Shown: positions 76 through 62,738, numbered from the whole stretch's first letter. The stretch is 63,995 nt of DNA, filler included, from Malassezia furfur (GCA_052055015.1; 8 parts of 8 records of this genome joined end to end with filler, not necessarily neighbours in it); one strand, 5' to 3'. Made by a program: numbers and translations. Notes: generated by a model from the sequence alone, not told the origin.

Positions 76-2408
76 ATGGATGGTGATTTGATTCAAGTTG
101 TGAATAGGCTGCAAGAGACGTTTACTGCGATCGGCGGGCACAGTGTGGATTTGCCACAATGCGTCGTCGTCGGGTCGCAGTCGTCTGGCAAGTCCAGTGT
201 GCTGGAGACGTACGTGTGCGCTGTACTGACCGCAGGATCGTGGGCCGGGACTTTTTGCCGCGAGGCAGTGGGATTGTGACTCGCCGCCCGCTGGTGCTGC
301 AGTTGATCCATGTGCCGTCGACGGACGGCGCGCGCATGCAGCCGGAGGAATACGGCGAGTTTCTGCACCTCGATCGCCGCTTCACCGACTTCGCGTCGAT
401 TCGCAACGAGATTGAGAACGAGACGTTCCGTGTGGCGGGGCAGAACAAGGGCATTTCGAAGCAGCCCATCCACCTGAAGATCTACAGCCCCAATGTGATC
501 AACCTGACGCTTGTTGACCTGCCCGGTCTGACCAAGATCCCGGTGGGCGACCAGCCGTCGGACATTGAGCGCCAGATCCGCTCGCTGGTGACCGACTACA
601 TCTCGAAGCCGAACTGCATCATTATGGCCGTGAGCCCGGCAAACGTCGACCTGGCTAACTCGGACAGCCTGAAGCTCGCGCGCAGCGTCGACCCGCAGGG
701 GAAGCGAACGATTGGTGTGCTCACCAAGCTCGACCTGATGGACTCGGGCACGAACGCGCTCGACATTCTGACCGGGCGCATCTACCCGCTGAAGCTCGGG
801 TTCGTCGGCGTGGTGAACCGTTCGCAGCAGGACATCAACAGCAACGTGCCGCTCGACATGGCTCGGCGCAGCGAGGAGGAGTTCTTCCGGTCGCACCCCG
901 CGTACCGTAACATTGCGCACCGCTGCGGCACCAAGTTCCTGGCCAAGACGCTGAACCAGGTGCTCATGAGCCACATCCGCGACCGCCTGCCCGACATGAA
1001 GGCGCGGCTCAACACGCTCATGGGCCAGGCGCAGCAGGAGCTCGCGTCGTTCGGCGACGTGGCCTTCATGGGCCACGAGCACCGCGGCACGCTTATCCTG
1101 AAGCTCATGACGCAGTTTGCGCGCGACTTCGTGGCGTCGATCGAGGGCACCTCGTTCGACATCTCGACCAAGGAGTTGTGTGGTGGCGCGCGTGTCTACT
1201 ACATTTTCCAGGACGTGTTTGGCCAGGCGCTCGGCTCGATCAACCCCGTGCAGAACCTCACCGTGCAGGACATCCGCACGGCGATCCGCAACTCGACCGG
1301 CCCGCGCCCCAGCCTGTTTGTGCCCGAGGCTGCGTTCGAGCTGCTGATCAAGCCGCAGATCAAGCTGCTCGAGCCGCCGAGCCTGCGGTGTGTCGAGCTG
1401 GTGTACGAGGAGCTGATGAAGATCTGCCACAACTGCACCAGCACCGAGCTGCAGCGCTTCCCGCGCCTGCACGCCCAGCTCATCGAGGTCGTGTCGGATC
1501 TGCTCCGCGAGCGCCTCGGACCCACGTCCGAGTACGTGCAGAGCCTCATCGACATCCAGGCCGCGTACATCAACACGAACCACCCGACCTTTGTGCAGGA
1601 CTCGGCGTCGATCGCCATGCACATGCGCGGGGCGCCGGCCAAGCCGCTCGCGGCGCCCAACAAGCCGCCGCACCACGAGACGTCGGTTGACTCGGACGTG
1701 GACGTGAGCAATGCGCCGTCTGAGGACGAGTCGGAGCACGCGCGGAGCACGCGCACCGTTGCTGTGAACGGCGCGCACCGCGATGCGCCCGCGTCGCACT
1801 CGCGCCCTGGTGCTAGCCGCACGCGTCCCCACGAGGCGGGCGACGCCGGGGGCGATGCGCTCGGCCCCAACGGCCAGCGCGAGTCGTTCCTGAACTACTT
1901 CTTCGGCGGCCCGAGCAGCCTGCCGCTGCACGAGCCGAGCGGGAGCGCGTCGAGCTTTGGGCTGCACACGCGCCTCGGGGAGCAGAAGCCCAACCTGCTC
2001 GCGGGCCGGGGTGGCCTCGAGGGCAGCAGCGCCGCATTCGACATGAAGAGCCTGGACTACTACCTGCAGTCGGACTCGATCCCGGACGACGAGCGCGCGC
2101 TGTCGGAGCGTGAGGCGGTCGAGGTGAACCTGATCCGCCAGCTGATCACGTCCTACTTCAACATTGTGCGCCTCTCGATCCAGGATCTCGTGCCCAAGGC
2201 GGTGATGCACCTGCTCGTCAACTTCTCGCGCGACACGGTGCAGAACCGGCTGGTGATCAACCTGTACAAGGAGAACCTCTTCGAGTCGCTGCTGCACGAG
2301 AATGAGGCGCTCACCAAGGAGCGCCAGCGCGTCCAGGCGCTGCTCGACGCGTACAAGGAGGGATTCAACGTTTTGTCCGAAATCACATTCAAGCCTACGA
2401 GTACATAG
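76..2408 (+). CDS. DNM1: Dynamin-related GTPase for mitochondrial fission (intron 210-235)
   Basis: [10 protein letters not shown]-loop, [21 protein letters not shown] and a C-terminal GED; a 26-nt GTACGT..CTGAC..CAG intron joins the two ORFs in frame. Confidence 0.92.
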
Positions 2409-2446
2409 GGTATAGAATAGGCCCCGCATCGTGCCTCTGCACCCGC

Positions 2447-3544
2447 TCAGCGCGCCTTGCGCCGCTGCGACCGCATCGCTTTCTTGAAGCGGTGCGCCGA
2501 CGCCGAGCCGGACACGAGCTCGTCGCCCCGGCCGGCGTCGCTGCGACGCGCGACGCGTGGCTCGTTCCGCGGTGCCTTGGCCGCGCGCTTGGCGAGCAGA
2601 TCGTACGCGCCCTCGCCACGCTCGCGGCGGCGCGCATCACGCTCGCTGCCACGCAGCAAGTCGCCAAACTCTTCCTCGATGCCGCCGCCAATTCGGTCCT
2701 TGTGCGCCGAAAGCCCCAGGCCACCGAGCGCCACGTCCTGCTCGTCGCGGCGCCGGCGCTTGGCGTCCTTCTTGGACATGGACAGACGCTTGTAGTTGTC
2801 CTCCTCGAACTCTTGCATGCGCTGCAGCGCACGCGCACGCGACGAGCCTGCCGTACCAACGGCACCGCCGCCGACACCCGCCGTGGACGTCTCGTACGGG
2901 TTCGTCGACATGCCCGCGGTGAGATCCGCCAGAAGCGCCGCATTGCGCGACGGCTGGCGCTCGCGGTTGCGCGCATTGCGCGACGGGCGCGCATCGGGGT
3001 CGTACAGCACCGGCGCCACTTTGGGCGGCTTGTACGTCGCGCCCTCCTCCTGCTCCTCGTCCTCGTCATCGGCGGCGCGCCCGGGCGCGGCACCTGCGGA
3101 GGCGAGCGCCTCAGGGTTCGGCCGGAATGCCAGTGGGTCGATCTCATCGTCCTCCGGCAGCGCCTTGTCGGCGGCGCTCGCGGCCTGGAGCAGCTTCTCG
3201 ACCTGGTACTTGATGCGCGTCTCCATCGGCCGCATTTTTTCCAGGACCAAGCGCAGCTTCACGAGACGCTCAACATACTCGGTACCCACTTCGTCCGTCA
3301 GTGACTTGCCCGACACGCGATGCGCGCACAGGAGCGCCATGTGGTGCAGGTATGCGAGCAGCGCATCGACCTTGACGGTGAGCAGTGAAAGGCCCTCAGG
3401 AAACTCGAGCTGCTTGTTCTCCGAGCTGCGTGAGCGTGACACGTACGCGTCCTTAAGCTTATCGATCTGCGGCCGCACCTCCTGGAGGCTATTGCCGATC
3501 GCCGCGCCAAGCGCTGCGACTTCGCTGCCGAGCGTACTCGCCAT
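2447..3544 (-). CDS. LCP5: U3 snoRNP/SSU processome protein Lcp5/neuroguidin (Sas10/Utp3/C1D family)
   Basis: EGLSLL.VK..LL.YL, RLVLEKMRPME..IKYQVEKLL, DPLAFRPNP, YKPPK motifs. Confidence 0.88.
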   Translation of the reverse strand: MASTLGSEVAALGAAIGNSLQEVRPQIDKLKDAYVSRSRSSENKQLEFPEGLSLLTVKVDALLAYLHHMALLCAHRVSGKSLTDEVGTEYVERLVKLRLVLEKMRPMETRIKYQVEKLLQAASAADKALPEDDEIDPLAFRPNPEALASAGAAPGRAADDEDEEQEEGATYKPPKVAPVLYDPDARPSRNARNRERQPSRNAALLADLTAGMSTNPYETSTAGVGGGAVGTAGSSRARALQRMQEFEEDNYKRLSMSKKDAKRRRRDEQDVALGGLGLSAHKDRIGGGIEEEFGDLLRGSERDARRRERGEGAYDLLAKRAAKAPRNEPRVARRSDAGRGDELVSGSASAHRFKKAMRSQRRKAR

Positions 3545-3623
3545 GGAGATGAGCGAAACCACAAAAAAATAGACGGTGCGACACGTGATCTATGTATGGC
3601 GTGTCTCGCACGGACGCTCGGTA

Positions 3624-5427
3624 TTAGAAGACCAGGTAGGCAATGTTGAGCAGAGGGAAACCGATCATCAGTCCGATCCAAAAGAGCAAGTTCCCCAGCG
3701 AGCGGTGGGTTTTGATAAACTTGGTCTGTGCCAGCATGATCAGGGGGTACTGCGACATTTGCGCCATGAATAGATATCCGCGCACTTTGCCGCTCACAAT
3801 GATCATCACAATCTCGTGCAGGACAGACGAGAAAAAGAAGGTCACAAGCGCCGCATGGCGCTTCGAGAGACCCCAGTTAAAGATGAGCGTAACATAGACG
3901 TGCTGCAGCAGGAAATGGTGGACGGGCTGCGTGAGTGCGGGGACGTACCCTGTTCCACTTCCGCGAGAACTCGTCCATCGACGCCGAGTTCCACCAGTCC
4001 TGGTAAAATTCGCGGTCTGCAAAGCGCGTCAGCTCCGCAAAGCCGTTGCAGATACACTCAAACATGAGGTAGAAGATGAGCAAATACTGGCATCAGCGTC
4101 TCACGTACGCAAAGCATCATGGGCGGGCCGAGACGCAAAAAGACCGACAGGAAGTCGTTCTTGTCGTCGACCGTCACCGGCATAATGAGGTTCACCGTAA
4201 TCACGTAGAGTACGAAGAAGGTGCCAAACGTGGCAAACACGCGCTCCAGCACGTACTCGGGGCGCACGCGCTCCGTACGCGGGTACTGCAGCTGGTACAC
4301 CAGCGACGGCACCAGCTGGAAGTCCCAGAAGTTGGCGACCGACACGTTGTACGGCCACATCGGCCCGAGGCCCTGGTCGTCCAGGTTGTTGTAGAGCAGC
4401 TCGCGCAGCTGTGAAATCTCTGTCGCGAGACGCTTTGTGGTCGGGTCCGGGTGCCACATGAAGGGATGCGGATCGTGTACGTCGTGGTCCGGGCACCCGA
4501 TGTCCGACTTCTTGGGGTGATCTGACAGCTTCTCATTGTCGAGTGCCGAAACGAGGCGCTGGTGCTCGGGCATGGGCGAGCGTGCACGCGGAATCTGGTT
4601 GCGGAGACGAGGGAGCCATTGGTGGGCGCGTTCCATCGAGCTGCCGGTCTGCATCGAGCGCGAGGCCCACACCTCGAACGGGTCGTCCTGTGGTGCCTCT
4701 TCAAAGGATGCCAGCGTCGAGGGTGCCGAGCAAAGGTTCGTGTCGCGCACTGCACGAGTCCAGGCCTCATTGATGTCGGTGTTGTAAAACTCTGCGAGGC
4801 GCTGGTTAAGCTTTTTCTGGAGCACCTCCATATCGTTGTACGTGTCGGACATGATGCCGTTCAACATCAGGTAGCTGTGCACCTTCATCATCATGACGAA
4901 CGAGTGCATCACAAAGAAGCCCGACTGTACCCAGGGCCATTCACTGTGTGAGACTTGCGACGTACCGGACTCGAGTCCAGGTCACAACTGTGCCGATCAG
5001 CATGCAGTGCATCAGCCAGAGGAAGGCGACCAGGCGCCCCTGAAACCGGCAGCGGTACTTGTGCAGGATCTTAACGAACGGCACAGTGATAAAGGTAGAA
5101 CCCACGAGCACAGCGTCGCTCAATGCAAGGATCATCGCGTCGCGGCTCATGAGCGTTGCAAACGTCATACTGAGCAACTCGCCCGTGGACCGCCATGACT
5201 GCAGAAATAGGTTCAGCACAAACAGGGCCATGTATATCCAGAAGAGGGTGTAAAACCCGCGGAAGCTACAGTGAGTCGTGAGACACGTACGTGTCTTTGG
5301 ACGTGACCGCATTGTCACGATCCAGCAGCGAGACGCGGGGGACGTAAGTCACGGAGCGAAGCACCTTTTTGCCAAGGCGCTCCTCGTGCACAATTGGCAC
5401 GGTATTCACGGTAGGTGGTTGTGCCAT
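3624..5427 (-). CDS. Sterol O-acyltransferase, MBOAT family (introns 5266-5290, 4944-4965, 4087-4108, 3927-3948)
   Basis: MKVHSY, FADREFYQDWWNS, WNRPVHHFL, SSVLHE (ARE1/ARE2/ACAT signature); four introns restore one frame. Confidence 0.9.
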
Positions 5428-6687: not shown

Positions 6688-8337
6688 TTAGGTTTTCTGC
6701 GCGGTTTCTGCGCGTGCATTGTCCGCACACACGGCCTGCACCGTGTCGGGCGCCGCTTCGCCGAGCGCGGGGCGCGGCAGCGCCGCGGGCGCGGGCGCGC
6801 GGGTATACGCGAGGTGCACCACATCGCGGTGGTCGCTGCACACCGCCTCGAACGCCACGGGTGTCGCGGTGCCATGTTCGATCGCGTACCACTGCGTGTC
6901 ATCGAGCACGTAGGCGCCGTCGCCCGCGCCGCCCGCCACAAGCACGGCACACAGCGTGTACTGCGAGCGCGCGTCGTGCGTCTCGGGCATCGCGGCGACG
7001 AGCGCCCGGTGCGTCGTGCGCACCTCATCGTGCAGCGTGCGCAGCCGTGCATCGAGGGCATCGAGGTCGTTCGTAAGCGCTGCGTCGACGTCCGCGAGCC
7101 AGGTGGCGAGCGGCGCGTACGCCTCGCCCGCGTCCCGCACGCGCTGCGCGTCGCGCAACAGCGGGGCGAGGGGCGTGCCGCGCGGCGCGACGAGGTGCGC
7201 ACGCTGCTGCTCGAGCGCGCGCATTTCGGCCTCGGCGTCGCGCAGCTGCGCCCAGCGCGGGTCGGCGTCGATGCGCGCGCCGCGCTGCGTGTCCCACAGA
7301 AAGGGCGCGAGGTCGATCGTGGGCTCGATGCAGAACGGGACCAGTTCGCCCGAAGTGGCGTCGCGCTGCACGTTCAGCAGGAGGACGTCGGCGGCGTGCG
7401 TGATGAGCAGCGAGTCCATCTCGCTGTTCTCCCGCAGTTTCGATACGAGACACGCGTGCACGGTCGCATCTGTGTCGGTGTGCACGAGTGTGATGGTCGC
7501 CGTGGGCTGTGTGGCGCCGCTCGGCGGCACGCTGCCGTCCGCCGGGGCGCTCGGCAGCGCGACGGCCGCAAACGACTGGAAGAGCTGCGCGGCGCGCGCA
7601 TGGGCCTCGGCACGCACGGCCGCGGTCTCGGCGCGCGTCGTGCACACGATCTGCTCGTTGACCAAGTGCATCGCGTCGACGTAGGCGTGCACCAACGCCT
7701 CGAGCAGCGCCTCGAGCAGTGCATGCACATCCGCCTTGCGGCTCGCGCGCAGGATCACGTCGGACGGCACGTACTCCAGCACGTCGCCGAGCACGATAAC
7801 GGCGCGTGCCGTGTGCTGCATCGTGGTAAACAGAGTCTGGATGCGCTGCACCCACGCGAGCCGCGCCTGGCGCTCTGCGGGGACGGGCGCGTCGTCCGGC
7901 CGGAGCGCCGGCGCGCCACGCCAGTAGTCCTCGAGCGACAAGATGGTTTCCGCGCGCGGGAAGCGCAGGAAGGCGTCGCGTGCACGGGGCACGGCGTACA
8001 GCGCCTGCAGCGCCAACGCGACGGCGGTGTGTGCGGGGACTTTGGGGACCAGCACCACAGGGCTGTGTGAGTCACGCAACACGTACGCTCCGTCGGTCCG
8101 GCGGCGGTCGAGCGCGCGCACATCGTCCTCGTGCGCAGCGTCACGCTGCGTCTCGGACTGGACACTTTCGGCCAAAACGCGCATCAGTTCTTCGTCGTCC
8201 GACGCGCGGCGTCCGCCGGGCGCCGGCTGTTCGGCCATCGATGCGGCCATCGCCTTTTGCAGCTCGACGTCCTCGTCGTCGCGGTCCGTGTACGAGGGCG
8301 GCGCGGGCAGTGCCGCGGGCGCGGGCGTGGGCGCGGG
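6688..8337 (-). CDS. UIM-containing protein with a degenerate USP/UCH-like fold; 5' end cut by gap
   Basis: Two UIM-like motifs (EDVELQKAMAASM, DEELMRVLAES); Cys-box-like LALQALYAVPRARDAFL and His-box-like YTLCAVLV...QWY segments lacking catalytic residues. Confidence 0.6.
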   Translation of the reverse strand, partial: PAPTPAPAALPAPPSYTDRDDEDVELQKAMAASMAEQPAPGGRRASDDEELMRVLAESVQSETQRDAAHEDDVRALDRRRTDGAYVLRDSHSPVVLVPKVPAHTAVALALQALYAVPRARDAFLRFPRAETILSLEDYWRGAPALRPDDAPVPAERQARLAWVQRIQTLFTTMQHTARAVIVLGDVLEYVPSDVILRASRKADVHALLEALLEALVHAYVDAMHLVNEQIVCTTRAETAAVRAEAHARAAQLFQSFAAVALPSAPADGSVPPSGATQPTATITLVHTDTDATVHACLVSKLRENSEMDSLLITHAADVLLLNVQRDATSGELVPFCIEPTIDLAPFLWDTQRGARIDADPRWAQLRDAEAEMRALEQQRAHLVAPRGTPLAPLLRDAQRVRDAGEAYAPLATWLADVDAALTNDLDALDARLRTLHDEVRTTHRALVAAMPETHDARSQYTLCAVLVAGGAGDGAYVLDDTQWYAIEHGTATPVAFEAVCSDHRDVVHLAYTRAPAPAALPRPALGEAAPDTVQAVCADNARAETAQKT

Positions 8338-8610: not shown

Positions 8611-11349
8611 CTACGCGAGGGCATATTGCTGCAAGTGTCCCAAACAGGCTTGGTAGAGGACCCTGAGATTCAATGAGCTGGGCGTCGTCCAGGCGGCCAA
8701 GAACAGATCAGTGGTGGGGTGGGAGGGGGAGTGGATAATACACGGAGAATCGGACGCCCAGCGCGTGAGCTTTTCCTGGAACAGGACCGCGGCGGTGTGC
8801 AGTGCCGAGCCGGGCGCCTGTGGCGTCGGCTTGGACGCGAGCAGCCCCTGCGCCGCGGCCTCGCCAAGGATGTGCGCGAGGTTGATTTGGCTGCCAAAGA
8901 TGCGAATCGCGTCGGGCGTTACGCCCTCGTCCGCGACGCACCCCTCGAGCGGGATGTCGTGCAACAGTGCGGGCTGCTCGAGCGCGCCGATCGTCTGCGT
9001 AAAGAGCATACGCGTGTGCCCATTGCTCTCGACCTGGTTGAGACGATCCAAAATAAAGATCACCCATAGGTACCGCTTGAGCATCTCGCGGTGGAAAATG
9101 GCCGCGCCCAGCGTCGGCTCCGACGGCTGCAGCACCACCGGCTGCTCGCTGAGCGCCAGGCACGCGCGCACGGCACACGACAGCGCGAGCGAGGCCTCGT
9201 CGTACTGCTTGCATCGGTACAAGTACAGGTCGAGCACGATGAGCGACTCGACAAATTCCTGGGCCAGCTCCTCGACGGCCGGCTCGGCGGTGCGCGGCGT
9301 CAGCAGGCCGCGCGCCACGCGGTAGCACGCGAGTCCAAACGGCCACGGCGACGTCGGCGGCGCTGCGGCCGTCGCGATCGCGGGGTGCAGCGTCGTGGCG
9401 AGCGCGACGAGCAAAAGGAGCAGCGCCTGGCGCTGGCGCGCCTGGGTCGGCGTCCACTGCGGCGCGCCATGTTGGGTCGCGGAAGCCAGGTAGCGCTCGA
9501 TCAGGCCCCATTGCAGGAAGGGCAGCGTGCGCTGCAGATCGTCCTTCGCAAGGCGAAGCAAGGGGCGCACGGCGTCCTGGCTGAGCATGGCATCGGCCTG
9601 CGCCCGCAGCGCGTCGTAGTCGGCCTCGCCGCGCGCGCCGGGCGGGAAGAGCATGCGCGCGCTGGTGGCGCTGTCGGGTGCCGCGCCGGGGTACGGCGGC
9701 GACTGCGCCTGAGATTGGTACAGGCTCGCGAGGCTCTGTGGGTGTTCGGACGCGGGGACATGCGCCATGTGCCCATTCGCGTCGAGCACGCGCACATACA
9801 TTGATGCGGCGGCCGTGCACCCCTGCGCCTCTTCCTGGAGGAGATGCTCGCCGCCGGCGGCAGGCGATGCCTCGGTCAGGCGCCCTGGGCCATGCTGAGC
9901 ATAAAACTCGGTTAGCTGCCGTGTAGCAACGTTGCCGACGCTCTGCGACGTGAGAAAGTGGTCGAGCGCCGCCTGGCACTGGTCCCCCGCGCCTTCGGGC
10001 TCGCGTGCCGTAGGCGACGCCGACGCCACGGGCGCCGCGGGCGAGTCAGTGGCGATCGGCTTGGTCAACAGGGAGAGGTCCCTGGCCGCCGACTCGGGCT
10101 TCTTCCATGCCGGGTCGTCGGCGAGGGTGTCGCTTGTGGGCACGGGCGACGCAACGCTCGACGGCAGGCTCGATGCGCCCGCCGAGAGCTCCTGCTGCCC
10201 GAGGCCAAACAGTGACGAGGAAGGCAGACTGTACGGGGAGGCAAGCTGCTCCGTGCCGCCCGCCGCGCCGTACGACGGCGTGGGATTGGCAGACATGCCC
10301 GTCGCGTTCATCTGCAGCGCCTGGAGATGGGGCGGGAACGAGGGCCAGACGTTGGAGGGCAAATTGTTGAGCACGTCCATGGCGAGGCCTGCCGGCAGAC
10401 CGCTCGCCGTCCCCGCTCCCGCTTTTCCTGCCTCGCCGTACATGCCCGGCGCCGTGGCATCGCTGGAGCTGAGCCACAGGTTGGGCCCGTTCAAGCCGCT
10501 GGCACTTAGGCCGTCCAGCGATGCCTGAACCGGTGCGGTGCCATTGGCGGCCATGGCCGCCGTGGTCGTCGGCACGACAAAGCCCTGCGCGTCGAGGGGC
10601 GTCGCCTCGGCGGGGCGCGCGCCGGGCGCCGCGGACGCGTCTGACACCCTGTCGCCCACACCGCGCTTCGGGCCATACTTGGACTGGCGCGAGCTGCGGC
10701 TGCGGAATACGATCCCGGCGTTGTCCATCATCGCGCGTTCGCGTCTGGGGTAAGTCGGTGTCGACATACTTGCTCGGCGGCCCACGTTTGCGGAGCACGT
10801 CGTCCGATGTGCACACGCGTCCCGATTGCGCACAGTGTCCACACGTCGGCTTTTTGCGGTCGCACTGGGTGAGTGGCGTGAGCGACGTACCTTGATTTTG
10901 CGTTTCCGGCAGTAGTCGCACGCGGCTTGGCCCTCGGCAGAGTCAGGCATGCGCGCCCGAAACGCCTTGAGGAACTCGTGCGCATACAGCGTGTCGCGGT
11001 TGTTGCGCGCCGTGCTCCAGTCCATCGGGTTCGCGAGCCGTCGCTTGTGGGCGGGCTGCGATACGGAGCGATGCACGTCGTTGGCGGCGCCAAAGTTGGG
11101 CGATAGCATAAAGTTGCTCGTCTCGCCAAACGTGCTTTGTGAGTTCCACCCATTCAGGCTCTGATCCCAAGGGAGCGGCAGAGCGTCGATTGCGCCGTCG
11201 GGCGTGGGTGCGTACGTGGGCCCAAAGGGCAAGGTCGCGCCTGTCTCGCCGGCCTGCGGGCGAGTGAGAAGTACATCTGGCGTTGTCATGGCCGGCTGCA
11301 TGTCTAGCGTCGGCACCGGCTGGTTGGGCACAACATGGCTCCAGTCCAT
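8611..11349 (-). CDS. Zn(II)2Cys6 fungal transcription factor (introns 10865-10890, 10745-10769)
   Basis: Spliced ACDYCRKRKIKCDRKKPTCGHCAQSGRVC..RKRGPP; C-terminal fungal TF middle-homology-like region (KRYLWVIFILDR). Confidence 0.88.
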   Translation of the reverse strand: MDWSHVVPNQPVPTLDMQPAMTTPDVLLTRPQAGETGATLPFGPTYAPTPDGAIDALPLPWDQSLNGWNSQSTFGETSNFMLSPNFGAANDVHRSVSQPAHKRRLANPMDWSTARNNRDTLYAHEFLKAFRARMPDSAEGQAACDYCRKRKIKVRRSRHSPSATAKSRRVDTVRNRDACAHRTTCSANVGRRASMSTPTYPRRERAMMDNAGIVFRSRSSRQSKYGPKRGVGDRVSDASAAPGARPAEATPLDAQGFVVPTTTAAMAANGTAPVQASLDGLSASGLNGPNLWLSSSDATAPGMYGEAGKAGAGTASGLPAGLAMDVLNNLPSNVWPSFPPHLQALQMNATGMSANPTPSYGAAGGTEQLASPYSLPSSSLFGLGQQELSAGASSLPSSVASPVPTSDTLADDPAWKKPESAARDLSLLTKPIATDSPAAPVASASPTAREPEGAGDQCQAALDHFLTSQSVGNVATRQLTEFYAQHGPGRLTEASPAAGGEHLLQEEAQGCTAAASMYVRVLDANGHMAHVPASEHPQSLASLYQSQAQSPPYPGAAPDSATSARMLFPPGARGEADYDALRAQADAMLSQDAVRPLLRLAKDDLQRTLPFLQWGLIERYLASATQHGAPQWTPTQARQRQALLLLLVALATTLHPAIATAAAPPTSPWPFGLACYRVARGLLTPRTAEPAVEELAQEFVESLIVLDLYLYRCKQYDEASLALSCAVRACLALSEQPVVLQPSEPTLGAAIFHREMLKRYLWVIFILDRLNQVESNGHTRMLFTQTIGALEQPALLHDIPLEGCVADEGVTPDAIRIFGSQINLAHILGEAAAQGLLASKPTPQAPGSALHTAAVLFQEKLTRWASDSPCIIHSPSHPTTDLFLAAWTTPSSLNLRVLYQACLGHLQQYALA

Positions 11350-11741: not shown

Positions 11742-12548
11742 ATGCTGGTGCTGGTAATTGGTGCGTGCGCGCGACTGACGGCCAGGCGACCTGCTGCTTC
11801 CCTACCGCGCGCTGGATCTGCCGGCCAAGTTCCGGAAGCTGCTTGTTCCTGGAAAGATCCAGCAGGTGGTATGCACCGGCAATGTGTGCGACAAGCAGAC
11901 GTACGACTACCTCCGGTCGCTCGCCAACGAGATTCATATGGTCAAGGGCGACTATGACGAAGTGCGTGGTCTCGCTGACACAGAACCAGCGCCTGCCCTC
12001 GCAGCTCGTGCTGCAATATCCTCCCGTGCGAATTGGCGTCGTGCACGGCCACCAGGTTATTCCGGCTGGGGACAAGGCCGCCCTCGCGTCGCTCGCGCGG
12101 TCGATGAACGTCGACGTGCTCCTGAGCGGCTACACCCACCAGTTTGAGGCGTATGCATATGAAGGCCGCTTCTTTATTAACCCTGGGAGTGCGACGGGTG
12201 CCTGGACCACCGAAGTACCGCTCCCCGGCGCGCCTGCGCAGACGGCGCCGCCCGCGGGCAGCAAAGATACCCCTGACGCGGACAAAGCTGCGGCGGCAAG
12301 CAAGCCTTCCGCAGCTGCGCCGCACGAGCCAGTCACGTCCGCGCCGGACGAGGTGCTCGACGACGACGGCGAGGAGATGGGCACGACGCCGTCGTTTGCG
12401 TGTACGTGAGGAAGCTCACCCAGTGCTCGACATCCAAGGCGCCGTGGTGGTGATCTACATTTACCAACTGATCAACAACGAGGTCAAGGTCGAGAAGCTT
12501 GAGTATCGCAAGCCGGTCGAGGCCGCCGACCCCGCCGCGGGAGCCTAA
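11742..12548 (+). CDS. VPS29: Retromer subunit Vps29 (introns 11761-11785, 11962-11983, 12402-12423)
   Basis: [57 protein letters not shown]. Confidence 0.93.
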
Positions 12549-17388: not shown

Positions 17389-18396
17389 ATGGCGAAGCGC
17401 ATGCGGGTGCGTCGGCGCGACTCACACAGGGCCTCGCGATCTCGCGCCCCATCTTGATTGGGTCGACCGCGACGCCGCTCACACCGACGGAGCGGCTGAC
17501 CGCGCCACCGGACCACACGCACCGCTGGACGGTCGCCGTGCGCAGCGCCGCAACGGCGCCGCTCGCGGCGTTTGCCGCGGACCGCGGCACGGACGACGCG
17601 TCCGCAGCGATTGGCACACGCCTGCGCGACAGTGAGGTCGACCTGCACAAGGCTGTGGGCGGCAAGGACGACCTGTCGTACTTTATCAAGCGCGTCCAGT
17701 TCCGGCTGCACGACACCTACGCGCAGCCCACTCGCAGTACGTCGCCTCCGTGCTCACCCAGACGTGGACCGCGCGCCGTTCAGCGTCACCGAGACGGGGT
17801 GGGGCGAGTTCGAGATCCAGATCAAGATCTTCTTTGTGCCCGAGGCGGGCGAGAAGCCGCTCACGGTGCTCCACCACCTCAAGCTGCATCCGTGGCCCAG
17901 CGCCCCGGTCGGCACGTCGGTGCCCCCGGCGGCGCCGGCGGCGCCCGCGCCCACGGACGGCACACCCGCGCCGCCGCTGCCGCCCGCCGTGCACTCGTGG
18001 CAGTACGAGGAGATTGTGTTCCCGGAGCCTTTGGAGCCGTTCTACGAGCTGCTTCTGGCGCACCCACCGACGCCCTGGCCCGCGACGTCCGCGCAGGCGT
18101 TTGCCGACGCCGGCGACTACGAGGCGTACCGCCGTGCGCGCGATGCCAACGAGCCTGCCGCGCCGCCTCACCCGGTGCACACGCCGACGGGGCACCTGTT
18201 CGAGGCGCTCTCGCTCGAGGCCCAGCGCGCCGAGGCGGACCGCATCGACCTCGCGCGCGCCAACGCCGTGCACCAGCTCGACGCGGACCGCGCGCGGCTC
18301 ATCCACACCGAGAAACTGCTGCGCGACACACGCGCGCGCATCGCGGCGCTCGAGCCACCGGCCGCAGAGGCTCCGTCGGCGCCGCGCGCTGCCTAA
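17389..18396 (+). CDS. YAF9: YEATS-domain NuA4/SWR1 subunit (introns 17407-17429, 17737-17761)
   Basis: [46 protein letters not shown]. Confidence 0.93.
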
Positions 18397-29467: not shown

Positions 29468-29691
29468 ATGGTGTGTATGCCGATGCGGCACTGTGCTTAC
29501 ACTGCAGCCCTCCAACAAGTCTCTCCGCACGAAGCTTAAGCTTGCGAAGGCTCAGCGCCAGAACCGGTATGTTGCGCACGTCCGACTGACCGTTTAGCCC
29601 CATCCCCAACTGGTTCCGCATGAAGACCGACAACAAGATCCAGTACAACAAGAACCGCCGTCACTGGCGCCGCACCAAGCTTAACATCTAA
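29468..29691 (+). CDS. RPL39: 60S ribosomal protein L39 (introns 29471-29507, 29567-29597)
   Basis: Spliced [51 protein letters not shown]; absent from the ORF track. Confidence 0.96.
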
Positions 29692-51572: not shown

Positions 51573-52328
51573 CTAGTACTTGGCCTTGTTAATGCGCTCC
51601 TCCAAGAACTTTTGCCAGTCCTCCTTGGAGAAGGACGAAGAAATCGACGGCTCTACCACGCCGTTCCACACTGCGTCAGTCGTCGTTGTACGTACGCGCC
51701 GTCGGCGTCACATGGATCCCATTCTGGCGGCCAATCTTGGTCACGTACTTGAGGTCCGGCACAATCTTGGAGCCGGTGTTGCCCTCGTCCGACACACGCG
51801 TCCAGGAGCGCACCGCCTGGCCAAGTGGTTGGCCATCGAGCTCGACAATGGGCGTCTTCTTCGCCTTGCGCACGTCCTCACCGAGCACATTCACCACCAG
51901 CGTCGCGAGCTCGGCGCGGATCTGGTCCGGGTTCTTGGATCGGGCAGGCGCATCGTACCACCGCTCGCTCTCCTTCATGAGCGCCTGCGAGAACACCCAG
52001 AATGCGTTGCGCTCAGGGTCCTGCAGTGCAAGTTGGTCGTGCAGCGAGATGCGCGCCACGGCCAGCGCCGTCTCATGCAGCAGCGGCGAGGACGCATGCC
52101 ACGTCTGCGGGTATGGGCGTACAACCACACGCAGCTGGTCCTTAAACGGCGCCTGCTCGCCAAAGAGCAGCGGCACGACGTTGGTGTGGAAATTGGTCAA
52201 CATCTTCGCCGAGAATGGGCCTGGGGTCAGCAGAACCACATACACAGGTAGTCCACATAGAGTTCAAGGACGTGTGAGGCCGAGACGGAGCCAATCGCGA
52301 GCGCCTGCAGTTCCTTCGGCAGCGCCAT
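51573..52328 (-). CDS. Thioredoxin/DsbA-like fold protein (introns 52221-52243, 51671-51695)
   Basis: Spliced ELYVDYLCPFSAK (one Cys), QTWH, RQNGIHVTPTALWNG. Confidence 0.8.
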
Positions 52329-56000: not shown

Positions 56001-56688
56001 ATGACGCAGGATCCCAGGGCTGCCGCCGGCGCGGCCGTTGGCGCGGAGCTGGACAAGCGTGGCGTGATGTTCTGCGTGGTGTGCGCCAGCAACCAGAACC
56101 GCTCCATGTTTGGGCACAACGCATTGCTGTACGTGGCGCGGCGTATGCGTTTCTCACACAGAAAAGCCGGCATGCAGGTGTGCTCTGCCGGTACAGGCTC
56201 CGCAGTGCGGCTGCCAGGCCCTGCAATCGACAAGCCCAACATCTATACATTCGGTACACCGTATGACTACATGTACCAGGACCTGATGAAAAAAGACCCG
56301 CGGCTGTACGAGGCGAATGGGCTGCTGTCGATGCTCGACCGGAACCGGCGCATCAAGACGGCGCCGGAACGCTGGCACGACTCGCGGCGGGTCGCCGACA
56401 TTGTTATTACGTGCGAGGAGCGGTGCTTTGACAGCGTGTGCGAGGATCTGCTGAGCCGGCGCTCGGAGCTCAACCGCGCGGTGCACGTCATCAATGTCGA
56501 AATCAAAGACAATCACGAAGAAGCCGACATTGCGTCGCGCGCCATTCTCGCGTTAGCCCGAAAGGTAAGTGGCATGCTCACACCAGATTGAGGCTGCTCA
56601 GGACATTGACGAAGAGATTGACGGGATTCTCGAGGAGCAGCAGCAGTCCTTCCCTTACCCTCTATTGCACACCGTAGCATATTACTAG
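56001..56688 (+). CDS. SSU72: RNA polymerase II CTD phosphatase (introns 56129-56161, 56565-56586)
   Basis: [36 protein letters not shown]. Confidence 0.95.
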
Positions 56689-58540: not shown

Positions 58541-61373
58541 CCAAGAAGGGAGGTTCGCAGCTCGCGCAGCTCCGCTCGGGGCTGCGCGACGCCGGGGTCA
58601 CCACCAGCAAACCAAAGAAGGGCAGGAAGGAGGACAGGGACGACCGCGTGGGGCAGTACCGCCGCGAGCAGCGCAAAAAGCGGCTCGACGCCCTCATGTC
58701 CTCCCTGAACGCATTCGACGAGCGCACCGCGCGCGCCAAGAACGACGTACTCGGGCGCAAGGTCAAGGGCACGACGGGGCGCCCGGGTGCATCCAAGTCG
58801 GACGCGATCCAGCTGCGCCGCGAAAAGCTCCTCCCGGAGCTCGACGCGCGGCACCGCTCGTCGTCGTTCGTCGACCGCCGCTTTGGCGAATACAACCCGC
58901 ACCTCTCGGTGGAAGACAAGATGCTGCAGCGTTTCACGCACGAGCGGCAGAACCGCACAGGCAAGGCGTCGCTCTTTGACCTGAACGACGACGACGAAGA
59001 GGCGGGTCTGACGCACTATGGCCAGAGCCTCAGCGGCCTCGACGAGATGCCCGATGTCATGCACGAGGACGACGAAGAGCACGGTACGTATGCCCGCACC
59101 CGGGGCGCGCCAAGGATGATCCGACGAAACAACGTCTATACCGAAGGAGCCGACAGGCTATGCCGGGTAAAAGTTCTACTGGAGATTGCTGAGGCGTCGC
59201 CCGTGCGGCTGGGAACTGGCTGACCACAGGCAACATGGACGCCTACGAGACGCAGGGGCACTTTGCGGGCTTTGCCGAGGGCGAGGGCGAGCGCAGCAAG
59301 AACGAGGTCATGAAGGAGATCATCGCCAAGTCGAAACTCGCCAAGGCCGAGCGCCAAAAGGTCAAGGACGCCGACGACGAAATGCGTATGGAGCTCGACG
59401 AGGAGCTCGGCGATATCCGCTCGCTGCTCTTCTCGCAGAAGCGCGAGGAGCAGGAGGAGGAGGCGCCCAAGGCGCCCGCGCCGGACGACAAGAGCGAGGC
59501 GTACGATGCGTTTGTGCGGGAAATGGCGTTTGAGCGCCGCGCACGGCCACAGGACCGGCTCAAGACCGCCGAGGAGATCGAGGAGGAGCAGGCCAAGCGC
59601 CTGCGTGATGCCGAGGCCGCGCGCCTGCGGCGTATGCTTGGCGAGCCGGACGAGGAGGAGCAAGATACCCACGAGGAGGAAGAGGTGACGGGGCGCATGC
59701 GCTTTGGCCTGGGCGAGGGATTGGAGGCCCGGGGGGCGAGGGCGATGCGGGACGACGACGAGGAGGGGGATGAGGAGGGCGACGAGGACGACGAGGACGA
59801 GGACGAGGAAGACGATGAGGACGATGAGGACGACGAGGAAGAGGAGGAGGAGGAGGAAGGGGAGGAGTCCGACTCCGACTCCGACGCGTCGCTCTCGCGC
59901 TTTGAGCGCCACCTCGACGCGGCCGAAGAGACCGCCCCCGGCCGGCACCGCGCGCTGCCGAAGCGCGCCGAGGTCCCGACGCTGCCCTTCACCTTCCCGT
60001 GCCCCAGCACGCACGACGAGCTGCTGGACCTGCTCGAGGAGCATGCCGTGCAGCCGTCGCAGCTCCACACGGTGGTGAGCCGCATCCGCACGCTGCATGC
60101 GCCGCACCTCGACGAAAAGAACCCCGAGCGGCTGCAGCGGCTGCTGGGCGTGCTGATCGACCACCTGCTGTACCGCGCGAGCCAAGCGGCGGGCGGCGAC
60201 GATGTAGCCGACGTCGTGGTGATGAACGACCTCCTGCTGCACATTGCCGAGCTCTCGAAAACATACCCCGCGCGCAGCGCCGAGCACTTTGTCGCGAAGC
60301 TCGCCATGATGCAGCGCAACCTCACGCGCGGGCTGAGCCGCGGCCCACTGGAGCGCACCTCGCACACCTGGCCGGCCCTGCCCGAGCTGTGCCTGCTGCG
60401 CGCCGCCGGGATCGTGTGGCCGACGAGCGACCGCTGGCACCCGGTCGCAACGCCGCTTGCGCTGCTTATGGCGCAGTACCTCGCGCACGCACGCATCCGC
60501 TCGCTGGAGGATGTGGCCGCGGCGCTCTACCTCGTCTCGCTGCTGGCGTCCGACCAGCGCACGAGCCGCCGGCTGGTGCCCGAGGCGCTCAACGTGCTCT
60601 ACTCGGTCGTCGCGATCCTGCTCCCGCCGCTGCGCGCCAAGGGCACGGCGCCGGCCAAGGCGCTCGCCGAGGCGTTTGGCATCCCGACGCCGGACGTCGG
60701 TGCGCCGCACACCGCCGCCCTGGCGCTGCGGGAGGACGCGGCGCCGGCGACGCCCGTGCACCTCGTGCCGCTGCTCGCGCACGCGCCCGACACGGCGCAG
60801 ACGCGTGCAGACTTGCTCGGCGTCGCGGTGCAGCTCCTGGCGACCTGGGCGCAGCTCTACGCGCCGAGCCCGGCGTTTGTGGAGCTCTTCACCCCCGCGG
60901 CCTTTTTGCTCGAGGTCGGTGCGGCGCACGTGCGGGGCCCGCAGCCGCGCATCGGTGCGTACCTGGGCGACGCGGCGCACGCGCTGCGCGCGCAGCTCGA
61001 GCGCGCGGTGCGCGACCGGCGTGCGCTGCGGCTGCAGGCGCACCGTGCGCTGTCGATTGCGTCGTACGCGCCCAAGTTCGACCAGCAGGGCTTCGACCCG
61101 AAGCGCGCGACCGATCCCGTCGCGGAGCGTGCGCAGAACGCCAAGCTGCGTGCGCTGCTCAAGAAGGAGCGCAAGGGCGCCATCCGCGAGCTCCGCAAGG
61201 ACGCGCAGTTCGTCGCCGAGGCGCGCGAGCAGCGCCGCGCCGAGGAGGACGCGGCGTACAAGCGCAAGATCGACAAGATCACCCATGGGCTCCAAGAGGA
61301 GCGCTCCGAGGAGAAGCAGCTCGACCGCGCCAAGGCGACGCTGCGCAAGCGCGCGGGCAAGCGCGCGACATAG
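58541..61373 (+). CDS. NOP14: Nucleolar protein Nop14; 5' end cut by gap (intron 59084-59229)
   Basis: DRRFGE, LTHYGQSL, RSKNEVMKEIIAKSK, KTAEE, TSDRWHPV, KKERKGAIRELRKD. Confidence 0.93.
59108..59206 (+). ncRNA. Candidate intronic box C/D snoRNA guiding 25S rRNA 2'-O-methylation
   Basis: Box C-like AGGATGA (59113-59119), box D CTGA (59199-59202), terminal stem, 15-nt guide GTTCTACTGGAGATT complementary to the LSU rRNA segment AAUCUCCAGUAGAAC (recalled). Confidence 0.8.
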
Positions 61374-61435
61374 CCTGTACCATAGACGCCGCAGCGCGCC
61401 GCGCCCTCTCGCTGGCCCTCGACCTCCACTTCCGA

Positions 61436-62375
61436 ATGGTGCGCCGACGCCGCTCACGCAGGTGACCAAGCCGTCGAAGACCGCCGTCGCGCAGCGGTTC
61501 GTCGCCGTGACGGGCGCGAGCGCCACAGAGGCGCAGCAGTACCTGCGCGAATCCAACTACCGCCTCGAGGCGGCCGTCGACGCCTACTTTGCGCGGCAGA
61601 GCGCCGCGCCACGGCTCTCGGCGACGCAGGAGCGCGAGGCGACCGCCGCACTCCACGCCGTGTTCGACGCGTACCAGGGTACGTCGCTGGCTCACACCCA
61701 GACCCGGACGGGGAACCCGACACCATCACCGCCGAGGGCGCGCTCCGCCTGTTTGGCGACCTCGGCGTGGACGTCGCAAGTGTGTCGGTGCTGCCGCTGT
61801 CGTACTACCTCGACGCGCCGTCGCTCGGGCACTTTACGCGCACAGGCTTCACCGAGGGCTGGCTGCGCCTCGGCCTGGGCCCCGCGCTCGTGGGGCGCCC
61901 GCCGCCCGCCGAGGTACTCGCCGAGATGCGGCGCGCCGTGCCGCCGATCGACGACGCCTTCCGCACCAACGGCCCGGTGCTCCCGCCGCGCGCACCGGGG
62001 CAGGCGGCGAGCAAAAAGGGGCTGTATACCACCGTGTACGAGTACACGTTTGTGTTCGCGCGCGGCGAGGGCCAAAAGAACCTGCCCGTGGACGTGGCCC
62101 TGACGTTCTGGGACCTGCTCATCCCCTACGCGCCCGCGTACGACGCCGAGGGCACGCGCGGTGCGGCGCCGAGCTTTTCGGCGCGCCAGTATGCGCTATG
62201 GAAACAGTTTCTGACCGAGGCCGCAAACGTGCGCATCATCTCCAAGGACACCTGGACGCAGTTCCTCGAATTCACGCAAGAGATCGACCCGCACTTTGCA
62301 ACGCACGATTTCGACGCCGCATGGCCGTCGCTCATCGACGAGTTTGTCGAGTGGGCACGCAAGCAGGAGACATAG
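61436..62375 (+). CDS. DCN1: Defective in cullin neddylation protein 1 (introns 61439-61461, 61679-61701)
   Basis: UBA-like N-terminus; YEYTFVFAR..GQKNL, ISKDTWTQ, AAWPSLIDEFVEW. Confidence 0.92.
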
Positions 62376-62442
62376 AGCTTTTACACGATGGTATACAACA
62401 GTGGGTATTCGGCACGGCAAACCAACTCCATCCCCGCGCCGC

Positions 62443-62738
62443 TCACGCCTCCGCCTCGGCGAGCTCGCGCACGTACAGCACGTTGTTGCATCTGCGTCAG
62501 CGCGCACACCTACCGGATGAACACCTCGCCGAGCGTGCCGTTCGACTTGCCGTCTTGGAGCTCTTCGGTGTTGGCGAGCTGGAAGTTCATGTAGTTGTCG
62601 GTGCTCACCAAGAACCCCTTGTACTCCAGGCCCCACTTGAGGCGCACAAGCACCTTCTTTCCGATCTGCTGCTGGAGGAACGGCTTGGGGTTCACGGGAT
62701 AGTCCTGCATCAGCGCGCGCTCATCCACCTACCGGCAT
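62443..62738 (-). CDS. SMX3: Small nuclear ribonucleoprotein F (introns 62705-62732, 62492-62513)
   Basis: [40 protein letters not shown]. Confidence 0.95.

Follow-up and report, generated by a model that had tools for sequence, protein, structure and literature searches.

How short can a spliceosomal intron become, and which part of it resists further shortening? Introns of 30 nt or less are known from ciliates, microsporidia, Trichomonas and myxozoans, as described in the available portions of these sources (PMC9505925, PMC12862383, PMC13644364, PMC2483917, PMC6349667, PMC12316389), with sizes of ~24–25 nt in Paramecium, 15–16 nt in Stentor and medians of 22–27 nt in myxobolid myxozoans (PMC9505925, PMC12862383, PMC13644364, PMC2483917). 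Short introns were also, as the original prediction for the present sequence had noted, already known in Malassezia: the available text on M. sympodialis gives 5350 curated introns with a mean of 30 bp, 99% of them RNA-seq-supported (Zhu et al. 2017, PMC5389616 Table 2; review PMC7426719), the mean having fallen from 65 to 30 bp on RNA-seq curation (PMC5389616). The accessible parts of these reports give the mean and 'very short introns', without a mode, floor, branch geometry or mechanism; Figure S8 (cumulative lengths) may show the mode. Here we analysed a window of 63,995 nt from Malassezia furfur, consisting of 8 unlinked pieces, each up to ~8.3 kb, joined by N-flanked spacers, in which spliceosomal micro-introns with a floor and mode at 22 nt had been proposed. 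Sequence comparison places the source in Malassezia, with M. brasiliensis as the nearest species.

A curated set of micro-introns

Curation yielded 51 introns in 63 kb (50 entering the statistics, plus 30193-30224, added late), a density of 0.79 per kb at 58% GC. The sample represents ~1% of a genome, so that rarer shorter introns would escape it, and in-frame introns with weak signals could escape in genes without fetched homologues. Frame or motif is the sole basis for 24–25 of the 51. The introns are listed below with their evidence (P, homologous proteins; L, related loci); the gene at 29471-29597 is taken to be RPL39, the name given in the original prediction.

210..235, +, 26-nt intron, dynamin/VPS1-like gene; frame, motif
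3426..3446, −, likely 21-nt in-frame intron, LCP5-like gene; 7-aa gap versus P0022, strong motif, no spliced-aligner call
3927..3948, −, 22-nt intron, sterol O-acyltransferase ARE2; homologues, spliced aligner 6/6
4087..4108, −, 22-nt intron, ARE2; homologues, spliced aligner 6/6
4944..4965, −, 22-nt intron, ARE2; homologues, spliced aligner 6/6
5266..5290, −, 25-nt intron, ARE2; homologues, spliced aligner 6/6
8063..8086, −, 24-nt in-frame intron candidate, ubiquitin hydrolase-like gene; motif only
10745..10769, −, 25-nt intron; frame, motif
10865..10890, −, 26-nt intron; frame, motif
11761..11785, +, 25-nt intron, VPS29; spliced aligner with P0089, P0090, P0093
11962..11983, +, 22-nt intron, VPS29; spliced aligner with P0093, other bounds from P0089, P0090
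12402..12423, +, 22-nt intron, VPS29; spliced aligner with P0093, longer bounds from P0089, P0090
14495..14516, −, 22-nt intron, COA3-like gene; frame and motif only
17407..17429, +, 23-nt intron, YEATS (YAF9-like) gene; frame, motif
17737..17761, +, 25-nt intron, YEATS gene; Pfam 1-41 / 39-80 in two frames
21623..21674, +, 52-nt intron, glutamine synthetase GLN1; frame, motif
25631..25659, −, 29-nt intron, Ku70-neighbour gene; same position in L002, L004, L008, reciprocal alignment 3/3
25745..25766, −, 22-nt intron, Ku70-neighbour gene; same position in L002 (24), L004 (27), L008 (37), reciprocal 3/3
25827..25851, −, 25-nt intron, Ku70-neighbour gene; same position in L002, L008, reciprocal 3/3
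26315..26336, +, 22-nt intron, Ku70; spliced aligner 5/5, L008 46 nt
26514..26535, +, 22-nt intron, Ku70; spliced aligner 5/5, L002 22 nt, L008 46
26654..26674, +, 21-nt in-frame intron, Ku70; homologue gaps, spliced aligner 4/5
26781..26803, +, 23-nt intron, Ku70; spliced aligner 5/5
27841..27863, +, 23-nt AAG-ending intron, Ku70; spliced aligner 3/5, start 3 nt earlier in other two
28055..28080, +, 26-nt intron, Ku70; spliced aligner 5/5, L002 24 nt
29471..29507, +, 37-nt intron, RPL39; frame, same position in L002, L004, L008
29567..29597, +, 31-nt intron, RPL39; same position in L002, L004, L006, L008
29960..29987, −, 28-nt intron, NUDIX gene; same position in L002, L004, L008
30193..30224, −, 32-nt intron, NUDIX gene; alignment with relatives, outside the 50-intron statistics
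30411..30435, −, 25-nt AAG-ending intron; reciprocal 3/3, same position in L002, L008
30564..30588, −, 25-nt intron, NUDIX gene; reciprocal alignment 3/3
31054..31083, +, 30-nt intron, WD40 gene; reciprocal alignment 3/3
35774..35795, +, 22-nt intron, TBC-domain gene; spliced aligner 3/3 homologues reaching the site (5 tried)
35955..35976, +, 22-nt intron, TBC-domain gene; spliced aligner 3/4 reaching the site, P0095 giving 10 nt up to the same acceptor
37604..37627, −, 24-nt intron, SSR4-like gene; frame, motif
37724..37749, −, 26-nt intron, SSR4-like gene; frame, motif
38149..38181, +, 33-nt in-frame intron, DnaJ gene; motif, 63 Pfam positions over 76 residues
39250..39273, +, 24-nt intron, importin-beta-like gene; frame, motif
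43453..43481, +, 29-nt intron, RAI1; Pfam 1-48 / 50-307 in two frames
46075..46104, −, 30-nt intron, zinc transporter; frame, motif
46197..46222, −, 26-nt intron, zinc transporter; frame, motif
47112..47135, +, 24-nt in-frame intron candidate; motif only
51671..51695, −, 25-nt intron; frame, motif
52221..52243, −, 23-nt intron; frame, motif
56129..56161, +, 33-nt intron, SSU72; motif, frame
56565..56586, +, 22-nt intron, SSU72; flanking exons contiguous versus chain 3o2q_B
59084..59229, +, 146-nt intron, NOP14; Pfam in two frames
61439..61461, +, 23-nt intron, DCN1-like gene; frame, motif
61679..61701, +, 23-nt intron, DCN1-like gene; frame, motif
62492..62513, −, 22-nt intron, Sm protein F (SmF) gene; upstream exon matching SmF as far as the junction
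62705..62732, −, 28-nt intron, Sm protein F gene; frame, motif

Protein homology fixes the boundaries of the best-supported introns. Spliced alignment with a flat penalty, a 10-nt minimum and neither a branch term nor a length prior returned the same bounds for the four ARE2 introns with 6 of 6 homologues, Ustilaginomycotina outgroups among them, and for the six Ku70 introns with 3–5 of 5; spliced or reciprocal alignment did likewise in the TBC, Ku70-neighbour, NUDIX and WD40 genes. All 13 of the 22-nt introns originally listed are GT…YAG segments (7 on the plus strand, 6 on the minus strand), and for 11 there is support from homologous proteins or from introns that other species carry at the same position. 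The other two are the SmF intron, which is partly supported and whose downstream exon carries the expected Sm2 motif, and the COA3 intron, placed by reading frame only. At the SSU72 junction (56565), the upstream exon reaches residue 176 of 3o2q_B with 5 residues over, and the downstream exon aligns from residue 182/183 (E 0.44, weak). A splice-signal scan, with matrices trained on 20 introns from two other species, found 13 matches with a length of 22 nt, where 0.7 would be expected and none of 20 Markov simulations gave more than 2 (threshold 17). A regular-expression scan built on the original description gave 10 at 22 nt against 0.3 with the branch filter on, and 13 against 3.6 with it off (30 simulations).

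Splice signals

The ends are GT…AG in 51 of 51 introns, as the scans required. The donor has G at +5 in 50 of 50 and T at +6 in 47 of 50, does not follow the U12 pattern, and carries 5.75 bits over +3 to +6 (23 homology- or position-backed introns, without small-sample correction). The proposed GTRYGT consensus describes 38 of 50 donors, and GTAGGT occurs in 7; similarly, most acceptors are YAG as proposed, with AAG at two introns (27841, 30411). A CTNAY branch motif, which is complementary to U2, is present in 47 of 50 introns, in excess over simulation, with its A 5–10 nt from the intron end. This motif adjoins the acceptor without a polypyrimidine tract, as had been described; the gap between the pentamer and YAG, put at 2–5 nt, is usually 1–2 nt. 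The first AG at a permitted distance from the branch A serves as acceptor in 50 of 50 introns, so that a polypyrimidine tract would play no part. The intron at 30411-30435 skips a CAG, which would make it 15 nt long, in favour of the AAG at 25 nt.

The donor, the branch motif, the restored frames and the positions common with orthologous introns together bear out a U2-type identity. Introner-type mobile introns, which are near-identical repeats at positions specific to a lineage, were rejected, as 38 of 38 spacers differ and positions are common to several species. HAC1/XBP1 and tRNA introns have ends defined by stem-loops and lack a GT–AG or branch consensus; such a non-spliceosomal type was rejected by the GT–AG ends, the branch motif and the orthology to longer spliceosomal introns.

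Length distribution

The 51 introns comprise two of 21 nt, 13 of 22, six of 23, four of 24, eight of 25, five of 26, two each of 28, 29 and 30, and single or paired longer ones of 31, 32, 33 (two), 37, 52 and 146 nt; 44 are at most 30 nt long, the median is 24.5 nt (50 introns) and the mean 28. The mode at 22 nt (13 of 51) is confirmed. The floor at 22 nt is not, in view of two in-frame 21-nt introns, one firm (26654) and one likely (3426), which restoring frames cannot reveal because they are in frame. The former is a 7-residue insertion in Ku70, missing from 11 of the 12 homologues displayed, the twelfth (P0004) having its gap on the opposite side of the junction; spliced alignment without a length prior calls it with 4 of 5 homologues, and its position also holds introns in L002 (26 nt) and L008 (108 nt). 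The latter is a 7-residue insertion relative to P0022, the sole available LCP5 homologue, with a strong motif and no call by the spliced aligner. Lengths of 3n are under-represented (10 of 50, p 0.028), a deficit absent in the L002 and L004 introns (9 of 20).

The longer introns had been assigned to highly expressed or RNA-hosting genes (RPL39, GLN1 and NOP14), and the top three indeed lie in NOP14 (146 nt), GLN1 (52 nt) and RPL39 (37 nt), but those of DnaJ and SSU72 (33 nt each) and NUDIX (32 nt) exceed the second RPL39 intron (31 nt). The NOP14 intron contains a box C/D snoRNA look-alike (~59092-59209) with a terminal stem in the fold (z −1.56) and no Rfam match.

Two edges in the predicted branch position

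Branch points here are motif predictions. The predicted branch A never lies before position 16, which revises the proposed donor–branch distance of 14–17 nt, and leaves a tail of 5 nt or more in every intron. With other-species matrices, it falls at position 16 in 7 introns (0.5 expected) and at 17 in 15 (0.6 expected), with none at 12–15. A donor-anchored count that ignores the acceptor gave 7 at position 16 against 0.4 and 8 at 17 against 0.2, with 0 at positions 14 and 15; a small excess at 11–13 (5 versus 0.9) takes in second branch-like motifs within 25–52-nt introns. The loop minimum is 16 at tails of 5, 6 and 7 nt alike (50 introns), and loop and tail lengths are uncorrelated (rho 0.09). 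The sharp edge is therefore better described as a branch A at 16 or beyond plus a tail of at least 5 nt than as a 22-nt floor. The minimum length is 21 because these two minima add up to it, as in the shortest firm intron (26654-26674; branch A 16, tail 5). The mode lies at 22 because both 17+5 (n=9) and 16+6 (n=4) give 22, whereas 21 requires both minima together (16+5, n=2) and would moreover preserve the frame; 17+6 occurs once.

A limit on total intron length instead (~21–22 nt, such as an intron-definition footprint), with branch position following from the tail, appears unlikely. The two routes to 22, and the rarity of 16+5 and 17+6, hint at such a limit, but tails of 6–10 nt (25 of 50 introns) would then permit loops of 15 nt or less, and none is seen: shuffling tails at fixed length produced a mean of 4.6 loops below 16, and zero in only 0.0004 of 10,000 shuffles. 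In human extract, too, the distance from 5′ splice site to branch is decisive and total length is not (PMC6692369).

Same-position introns in related loci

Intron positions are conserved. Eleven window introns share positions with L008, a relative nested inside the genus with introns of 35–117 nt, and the L008 GT–AG introns are longer in 11 of 11 cases (35–108 nt). In L002, a caprae-like locus with a mean intron of 26 nt, the donor-to-branch distance peaks at 18 (8 versus 0.2 expected), and in L004 it is longer. In one 27-nt L004 intron the branch motif that scores best lies at 13, and a second at 21.

This variation by lineage would fit an edge that is evolutionary rather than mechanical, with a spliceosome able to cope with shorter loops and deletion bias balanced by efficiency loss and selection against 3n introns, as would the 15–16-nt introns that Stentor splices with loops of 10–11 nt (PMC9505925) and the scarcity of 3n introns, mild here and reported for ciliates in the available text of PMC5014332. 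We nevertheless give this account little weight, given how abruptly the count drops below position 16 (7 introns there, none at 15 or 14), and a Trichomonas branch A at 17–18 by arithmetic on the accessible part of PMC12316389. It is very improbable that the shortest introns splice poorly and are largely retained, as in microsporidia, or that their bounds are wrong and they leave as the longer introns of some deposited annotations. Such a reading could draw on the deposited Vps29 proteins of M. furfur and M. brasiliensis, which imply 37–43-nt introns at 22-nt sites, on residues flanking these junctions that are missing from several deposited ARE2 and Ku70 proteins, and on a splicing level of <20% for short introns of E. 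cuniculi (PMC6349667). However, the longer bounds remove residues conserved in other Malassezia and outgroups where the 22-nt bounds align gap-free, most such introns disrupt the reading frame of a conserved gene (SmF, SSU72 and VPS29, for example), and RNA-seq curation shortened the M. sympodialis mean. The introns described here are genuine.

Discussion

These are probably ordinary U2-type introns, compacted by genome reduction against two separate limits, a loop of at least 16 nt and a tail of at least 5 nt. Provided that branching takes place at the predicted A, the lariat loop from first G to branch A would consist of the 6-nt donor, 6 nt or more of free spacer and CTNA, and the acceptor would be the first AG at least 5 nt past the branch A. 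The loop limit may be steric, arising from fitting short U6–donor and U2–branch helices on one strand. The human B complex requires ~52 nt from the 5′ splice site to the branch site (PMC6692369), and a 16-nt loop is about one third of that spacing. Because the human arrangement cannot hold 16 nt, we infer an altered passage through the pre-catalytic B stage, in which the helices would be shortened and the U2 domain repositioned or, alternatively, U1, U2 and U6 would engage in succession. Modified spliceosome assembly in Malassezia, judged from human B-complex geometry, is plausible. U1 pairs with bases +1 to +6/+8 and U2 with ~+11 to +17; these registers do not overlap in sequence, and U1 and U2 may bind simultaneously. 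More tentatively, a loop of 16–18 nt could be the physical minimum for any lariat in which U6 still pairs with the donor and U2 with the branch site. Malassezia might have reached this minimum with thousands of introns through a spliceosome in which the extended A/B-complex geometry is skipped or remodelled (by sequential U1, U2 and U6 engagement or a shortened U2–tri-snRNP bridge).

Among the closest likenesses is M. sympodialis, of the same genus, with thousands of very short GT–AG introns (mean 30 bp versus 28 here) in the accessible text. E. cuniculi and T. vaginalis type B introns (23–25 nt) are, in the available portions of PMC2483917, PMC6349667 and PMC12316389, similarly tiny, with a recognizable 5′ site and a branch motif near the AG, which Trichomonas short introns keep; this strong 5′ and branch consensus in ~23–35-nt introns recurs here. 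However, introns number only in the tens in each of those genomes, in contrast to 51 in 63 kb of a culturable dikaryan fungus and 5350 in M. sympodialis. Ciliates, myxobolid myxozoans, dicyemids and the Bigelowiella nucleomorph also have many introns of at most 30 nt, spliced by the major spliceosome without a polypyrimidine tract, and Stentor (introns 76% AU) shares the 5-nt tail past the branch A, with a shorter loop (PMC9505925). Their signals, however, have shrunk to GTa…AG without a clear branch consensus (PMC2483917, PMC13644364), whereas the donor and branch motifs here are strong; membership in this degenerate-signal class (Paramecium, nucleomorph, dicyemid, myxozoan) was accordingly rejected, size agreeing and signals not. 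Our literature search found neither the 16+5 limit, nor full-strength signals in an intron-rich tiny-intron genome, nor a nested relative with a longer intron at every shared position.

If this reading is true, the long-intron relative nested in the genus would be a natural revertant for tracing the responsible protein changes. This Malassezia, which can be grown, could serve to test the lower size limit of introns.

Intron lengths in the window

Of the 51 introns in the curated set, 44 do not exceed 30 nt. The statistics refer to 50 of the 51; the remaining one, found later, is 32 nt long and leaves both mode and minimum unaffected. The original prediction had placed both a mode and a floor at 22 nt. 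All 13 introns that it named at this length are present as GT…YAG segments of 22 nt, and the class is strongly over-represented. A regular expression built from the original description yielded 10 segments of 22 nt with a branch filter, against 0.3 expected from 30 Markov simulations, and 13 against 3.6 without the filter. To avoid circularity, a second scan, covering lengths of 10–45 nt, used donor, branch and acceptor matrices trained on 20 introns from two other species, represented by L002 and L004, metagenome loci syntenic with the Ku70 region of the window. At its stricter threshold, this matrix scan gave 13 matches at 22 nt against 0.7 expected (maximum of 2 in 20 simulations), with observed and expected counts of 8 and 0.8 at 25 nt, 2 and 0.9 at 21 nt, 2 and 0.2 at 20 nt, and 1 and 0.1 at 15 nt, and zero matches at 10–14 or 16–19 nt.

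The floor at 22 nt did not hold, because 21-nt introns are present. One lies in Ku70 (26654–26674), where it is in frame, stop-free and missing in homologous proteins, at a position matching introns in L002 (26 nt) and in a further syntenic locus, L008 (108 nt). The segment at 3426–3446 in LCP5, where the spliced aligner gave no call, is likely the second. The short-intron feature is real and partly known, and the claimed floor was one base too high. Multiples of three are slightly under-represented among the intron lengths of the window (10/50, p 0.028), which is not the case in L002 and L004 (9/20).

Our own gene finder fused neighbouring genes and served solely to supply candidates; 52 candidates were scored and two dropped. 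Several short matches, among them those of 15 and 20 nt from the matrix scan, were rejected individually. Homology demands 25 nt rather than the 15 nt of 30421–30435, and the true intron at 46197–46213 (17 nt) is 26 nt long. The segment at 44324–44343 (20 nt) is antisense to RAI1, those at 51262–51281 (20 nt) and 1532–1559 lie within continuous SAICAR synthetase and dynamin domains, respectively, and 15123–15148 has no branch motif. A possible 5′ UTR intron at 29321–29376 (56 nt) was left out for its weak branch score. Calls of 16 nt (protein P0090) and 10 nt (P0095) were read as artefacts of deposited proteins extending into the intron. Outside the window, 19- and 21-nt matches in L004 and L005 are sub-matches of one 25-nt intron, and 13- and 16-nt calls in NUDIX orthologues disappeared under a corrected gene model.

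Support of intron boundaries by homology

Boundaries were examined with a protein-to-genome aligner that applies a flat intron penalty and a 10-nt minimum, without any branch or length term. In ARE2, four introns (25, 22, 22 and 22 nt) were identical with all 6 homologues used of 72, including two outgroups. In Ku70, for which 5 of 15 homologues were used, the aligner returned introns of 22, 22, 21, 23, 23 and 26 nt. Four of the five homologues gave the 21-nt intron, and three gave the exact bounds of the AAG-ended 23-nt intron. Each of the two 22-nt introns of TBC was called with three of the five homologues tried. For VPS29, the M. cuniculi protein gives both 22-nt introns, four fragmentary proteins yielded no intron call, and according to the deposited proteins of M. 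furfur and M. brasiliensis the introns would be longer, at the cost of conserved residues. The SSU72 exons align gap-free with a 214-residue solved chain, the second of the two matches being weak; the SmF exon matches its homologue right up to the junction; and the intron at 25745 was recovered from three of three other species by reciprocal alignment. Direct backing thus exists for 11 of the thirteen 22-nt introns; SmF is partly supported, and for COA3 the support is solely the reading frame.

In the homologous proteins P0001, P0004, P0016, P0017, P0018, P0020, P0089 and P0090, residues are missing or altered exactly at short-intron junctions, which suggests that the shortest introns are frequently mis-annotated in deposited Malassezia proteins. 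Given these faults, gene prediction in Malassezia should set the minimum intron length no higher than 20. Another deposited Malassezia protein, P0022, is a fusion of ARE2 with LCP5.

Splicing signals and loop–tail geometry

Judged by their motifs, the introns carry U2-type signals. The donor has A or G at +3, C at +4 (31/50), G at +5 (50/50) and T at +6 (47/50). Position +4 is usually A or T in model organisms, and the prevalent C could be linked to the way U6 pairs or is modified. A CTNAY branch pentamer is found in 47 of the 50 introns, the acceptors are CAG (45), TAG (3) and AAG (2), and the first AG at a permitted distance is the acceptor in every case. At 30411–30435, a CAG at +15 is skipped for the AAG at +25, as homology requires.

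We divided each intron into a loop, from its first G to the predicted branch A, and a tail, the bases after that A. By prediction, the branch A is base 16 in 7 introns, base 17 in 11, base 18 in 6, base 19 in 7 and base 20 in 6, and comes later in the others; it precedes base 16 in none of the 50, in a search that permitted earlier positions. Tails measure 5 nt (25 introns), 6 nt (15) or 7–10 nt (10). The 22-nt class is composed of 17 + 5 (9) and 16 + 6 (4) and the 21-nt class of 16 + 5, and the floor is better described as a loop of 16 plus a tail of 5. The matrix scan placed 7 branch adenosines at 16 (0.5 expected), 15 at 17 (0.6 expected) and none at 12–15; a donor-anchored count ignoring acceptors found 7 at 16 (0.4 expected), 8 at 17 (0.2 expected) and none at 14–15; and a tail permutation test on the loops gave p 0.0004. 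Together, these three results point to a limit on the loop, not on total intron length.

The donor-anchored count also found 5 matches at 11–13 against 0.9 expected. Several longer introns contain a further motif that resembles a branch site and has its A at 11–13 (5266, 10865, 21623 and 30411 in the window; 13038 in L004). These motifs violate the 16-nt rule, and may be decoys, remnants of duplication or genuine alternative branch points.

One intron contains a snoRNA-like feature:

59084–59229, plus strand: box C/D snoRNA look-alike in the NOP14 intron, recognized by motifs and a terminal stem

Its C-box-like motif lies near 59111 and a CTGA at about 59190; an Rfam search gave no match. The putative guide would presumably pair with large-subunit rRNA close to a position that is methylated in yeast; against viral contigs it gave 117 matches of at most 19 matching bases, with no target identified.

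Affiliation of the window and intron length in relatives

The window (GC content 64%) is made up of eight unlinked pieces, each up to about 8.3 kb, and its joints (8338–8437 and six more, about every 8.3 kb) read N44, a 12-base stop spacer and N44. As it is a concatenation from a fragmented assembly, genes across joints are not linked neighbours. Most genes could be named by Pfam, and no tRNA genes were found in the window. A CSL-family (LAG1/BTD) transcription factor gene (53952–56153, minus strand) lies head to head with SSU72, and the gene for SmF, a core spliceosome protein, is itself interrupted by 22- and 28-nt introns (62492–62732, minus strand). A 300-residue piece of Ku70 shares 96% identity with M. 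brasiliensis, and a 280-residue piece of ARE2 shares 94% with M. brasiliensis and 77% with M. furfur. A Ku70 tree pairs the window with M. brasiliensis as sisters (100/100; M. furfur Ku70 was absent from the matches). By these comparisons, the window represents a Malassezia near, yet not identical to, the deposited M. brasiliensis.

One metagenome scan revealed eight syntenic Ku70 loci in three groups (L001–3 with L007, L004–6, and L008), of which L002, L004, L006 and L008 were analysed. For L002, placed with M. caprae, 14 introns of 22–32 nt were curated, and the donor-to-branch distance peaks at 18; in L004, Ku70 is intronless and there are six introns of 25–38 nt; and L008 has nine curated introns of 35–117 nt. 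Eleven window introns have an L008 intron at the same position, and the L008 copy is longer in 11/11 (window/L008, nt: 25/35, 22/37, 29/51, 22/46, 22/46, 21/108, 37/67, 31/64, 25/50, 25/47 and 28/55). Between L008 8300–14500 and window 25245–30900, introns at identical positions are 1.4 to 5 times longer in L008, where the branch-to-AG tails are also longer (10–16 nt). The Ku70 tree places L008 within a 100/100 clade of L002 and L004, with the window outside. The simplest reading of this one gene tree at one locus is that short introns would be ancestral and were re-lengthened on the branch leading to L008; introns may also have shrunk several times independently. Long-intron Malassezia are already known, given the mean intron of 76–79 bp stated for M. 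globosa in the available text of PMC4634964.

Ku70 contains no introns in L004 and L006 (9300–11700), six in the window and five in L002, two of the latter at positions unused in the window. Intron loss or gain may be fast between groups.

Discussion

Short introns in Malassezia are already known. In the portions of text available, M. sympodialis has 5350 curated introns averaging 30 bp, 99% of them RNA-seq-supported, after an earlier automated set averaging 65 bp (PMC5389616); a review mentions ‘very short introns’ (PMC7426719); the M. restricta annotation used minimum intron lengths of 20 and 15 (PMC6473144); and the corresponding portions of PMC8476143, PMC4634964, PMC3560662 and PMC11347168 do not discuss them. 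Our literature search, which covered the text of openly accessible papers, found no account of a mode, floor or splicing mechanism in Malassezia; Figure S8 of PMC5389616 may already display the length distribution.

Elsewhere, again from partial texts except for the myxozoans, Stentor has 15–16-nt introns with a 10–11-nt loop and a 5-nt tail (PMC9505925), myxozoan medians are 22–27, with only GTa and AG left of the signals (PMC13644364), the Paramecium bursaria median is 24 (PMC12862383), Trichomonas introns measure 23–25 (PMC12316389), the short introns of E. cuniculi are spliced at under 20% (PMC6349667), and ciliates avoid 3n lengths (PMC5014332). A 2026 paper lists ciliates, Microsporidia and Dicyemida as lineages with introns under 30 nt, with Malassezia unlisted. 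Irimia and Roy described signals as degenerate in short-intron lineages other than those that also have few introns (PMC2483917, available text), whereas the window breaks this pattern, with many tiny introns bearing strong signals.

The original prediction also proposed a modified route of spliceosome assembly. In the human B complex, a 17-nt U6/5′SS helix is separated by 15 nm from a 14-nt U2/branch helix, an arrangement requiring about 52 nt, and human assembly is abolished at about 35 nt (PMC6692369). This form is impossible with a 16-nt loop, and the Malassezia spliceosome would therefore have to work with shortened helices and with another layout or sequence of events at the B stage. The acceptor would be picked by its spacing from the branch point, with no pyrimidine tract involved. 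The core pairings cover +1 to +6 at the donor and roughly +11 to +17 at the branch; they could fit end to end with 4–6 free bases between them, the point at which the distribution stops. For this reason, we favour steric constraint in the activated or catalytic spliceosome as the cause; the U1/U2 clash of the original prediction may be one version of it.

Among spliceosomes that handle introns far below the human donor-to-branch span (about 50 nt), the known extremes are those of ciliates, nucleomorphs and parasites that are uncultured or intracellular, for the most part lacking branch signals that can be read. Because the signals are readable in the window, the donor-to-branch distance is countable with single-base precision, and because Malassezia can be grown and transformed, according to the available text of PMC7426719, the question of the minimal loop is directly testable, with a long-intron relative usable as a control. 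The main interest of these introns lies in this combination of a countable limit, a tractable fungus and a long-intron relative.
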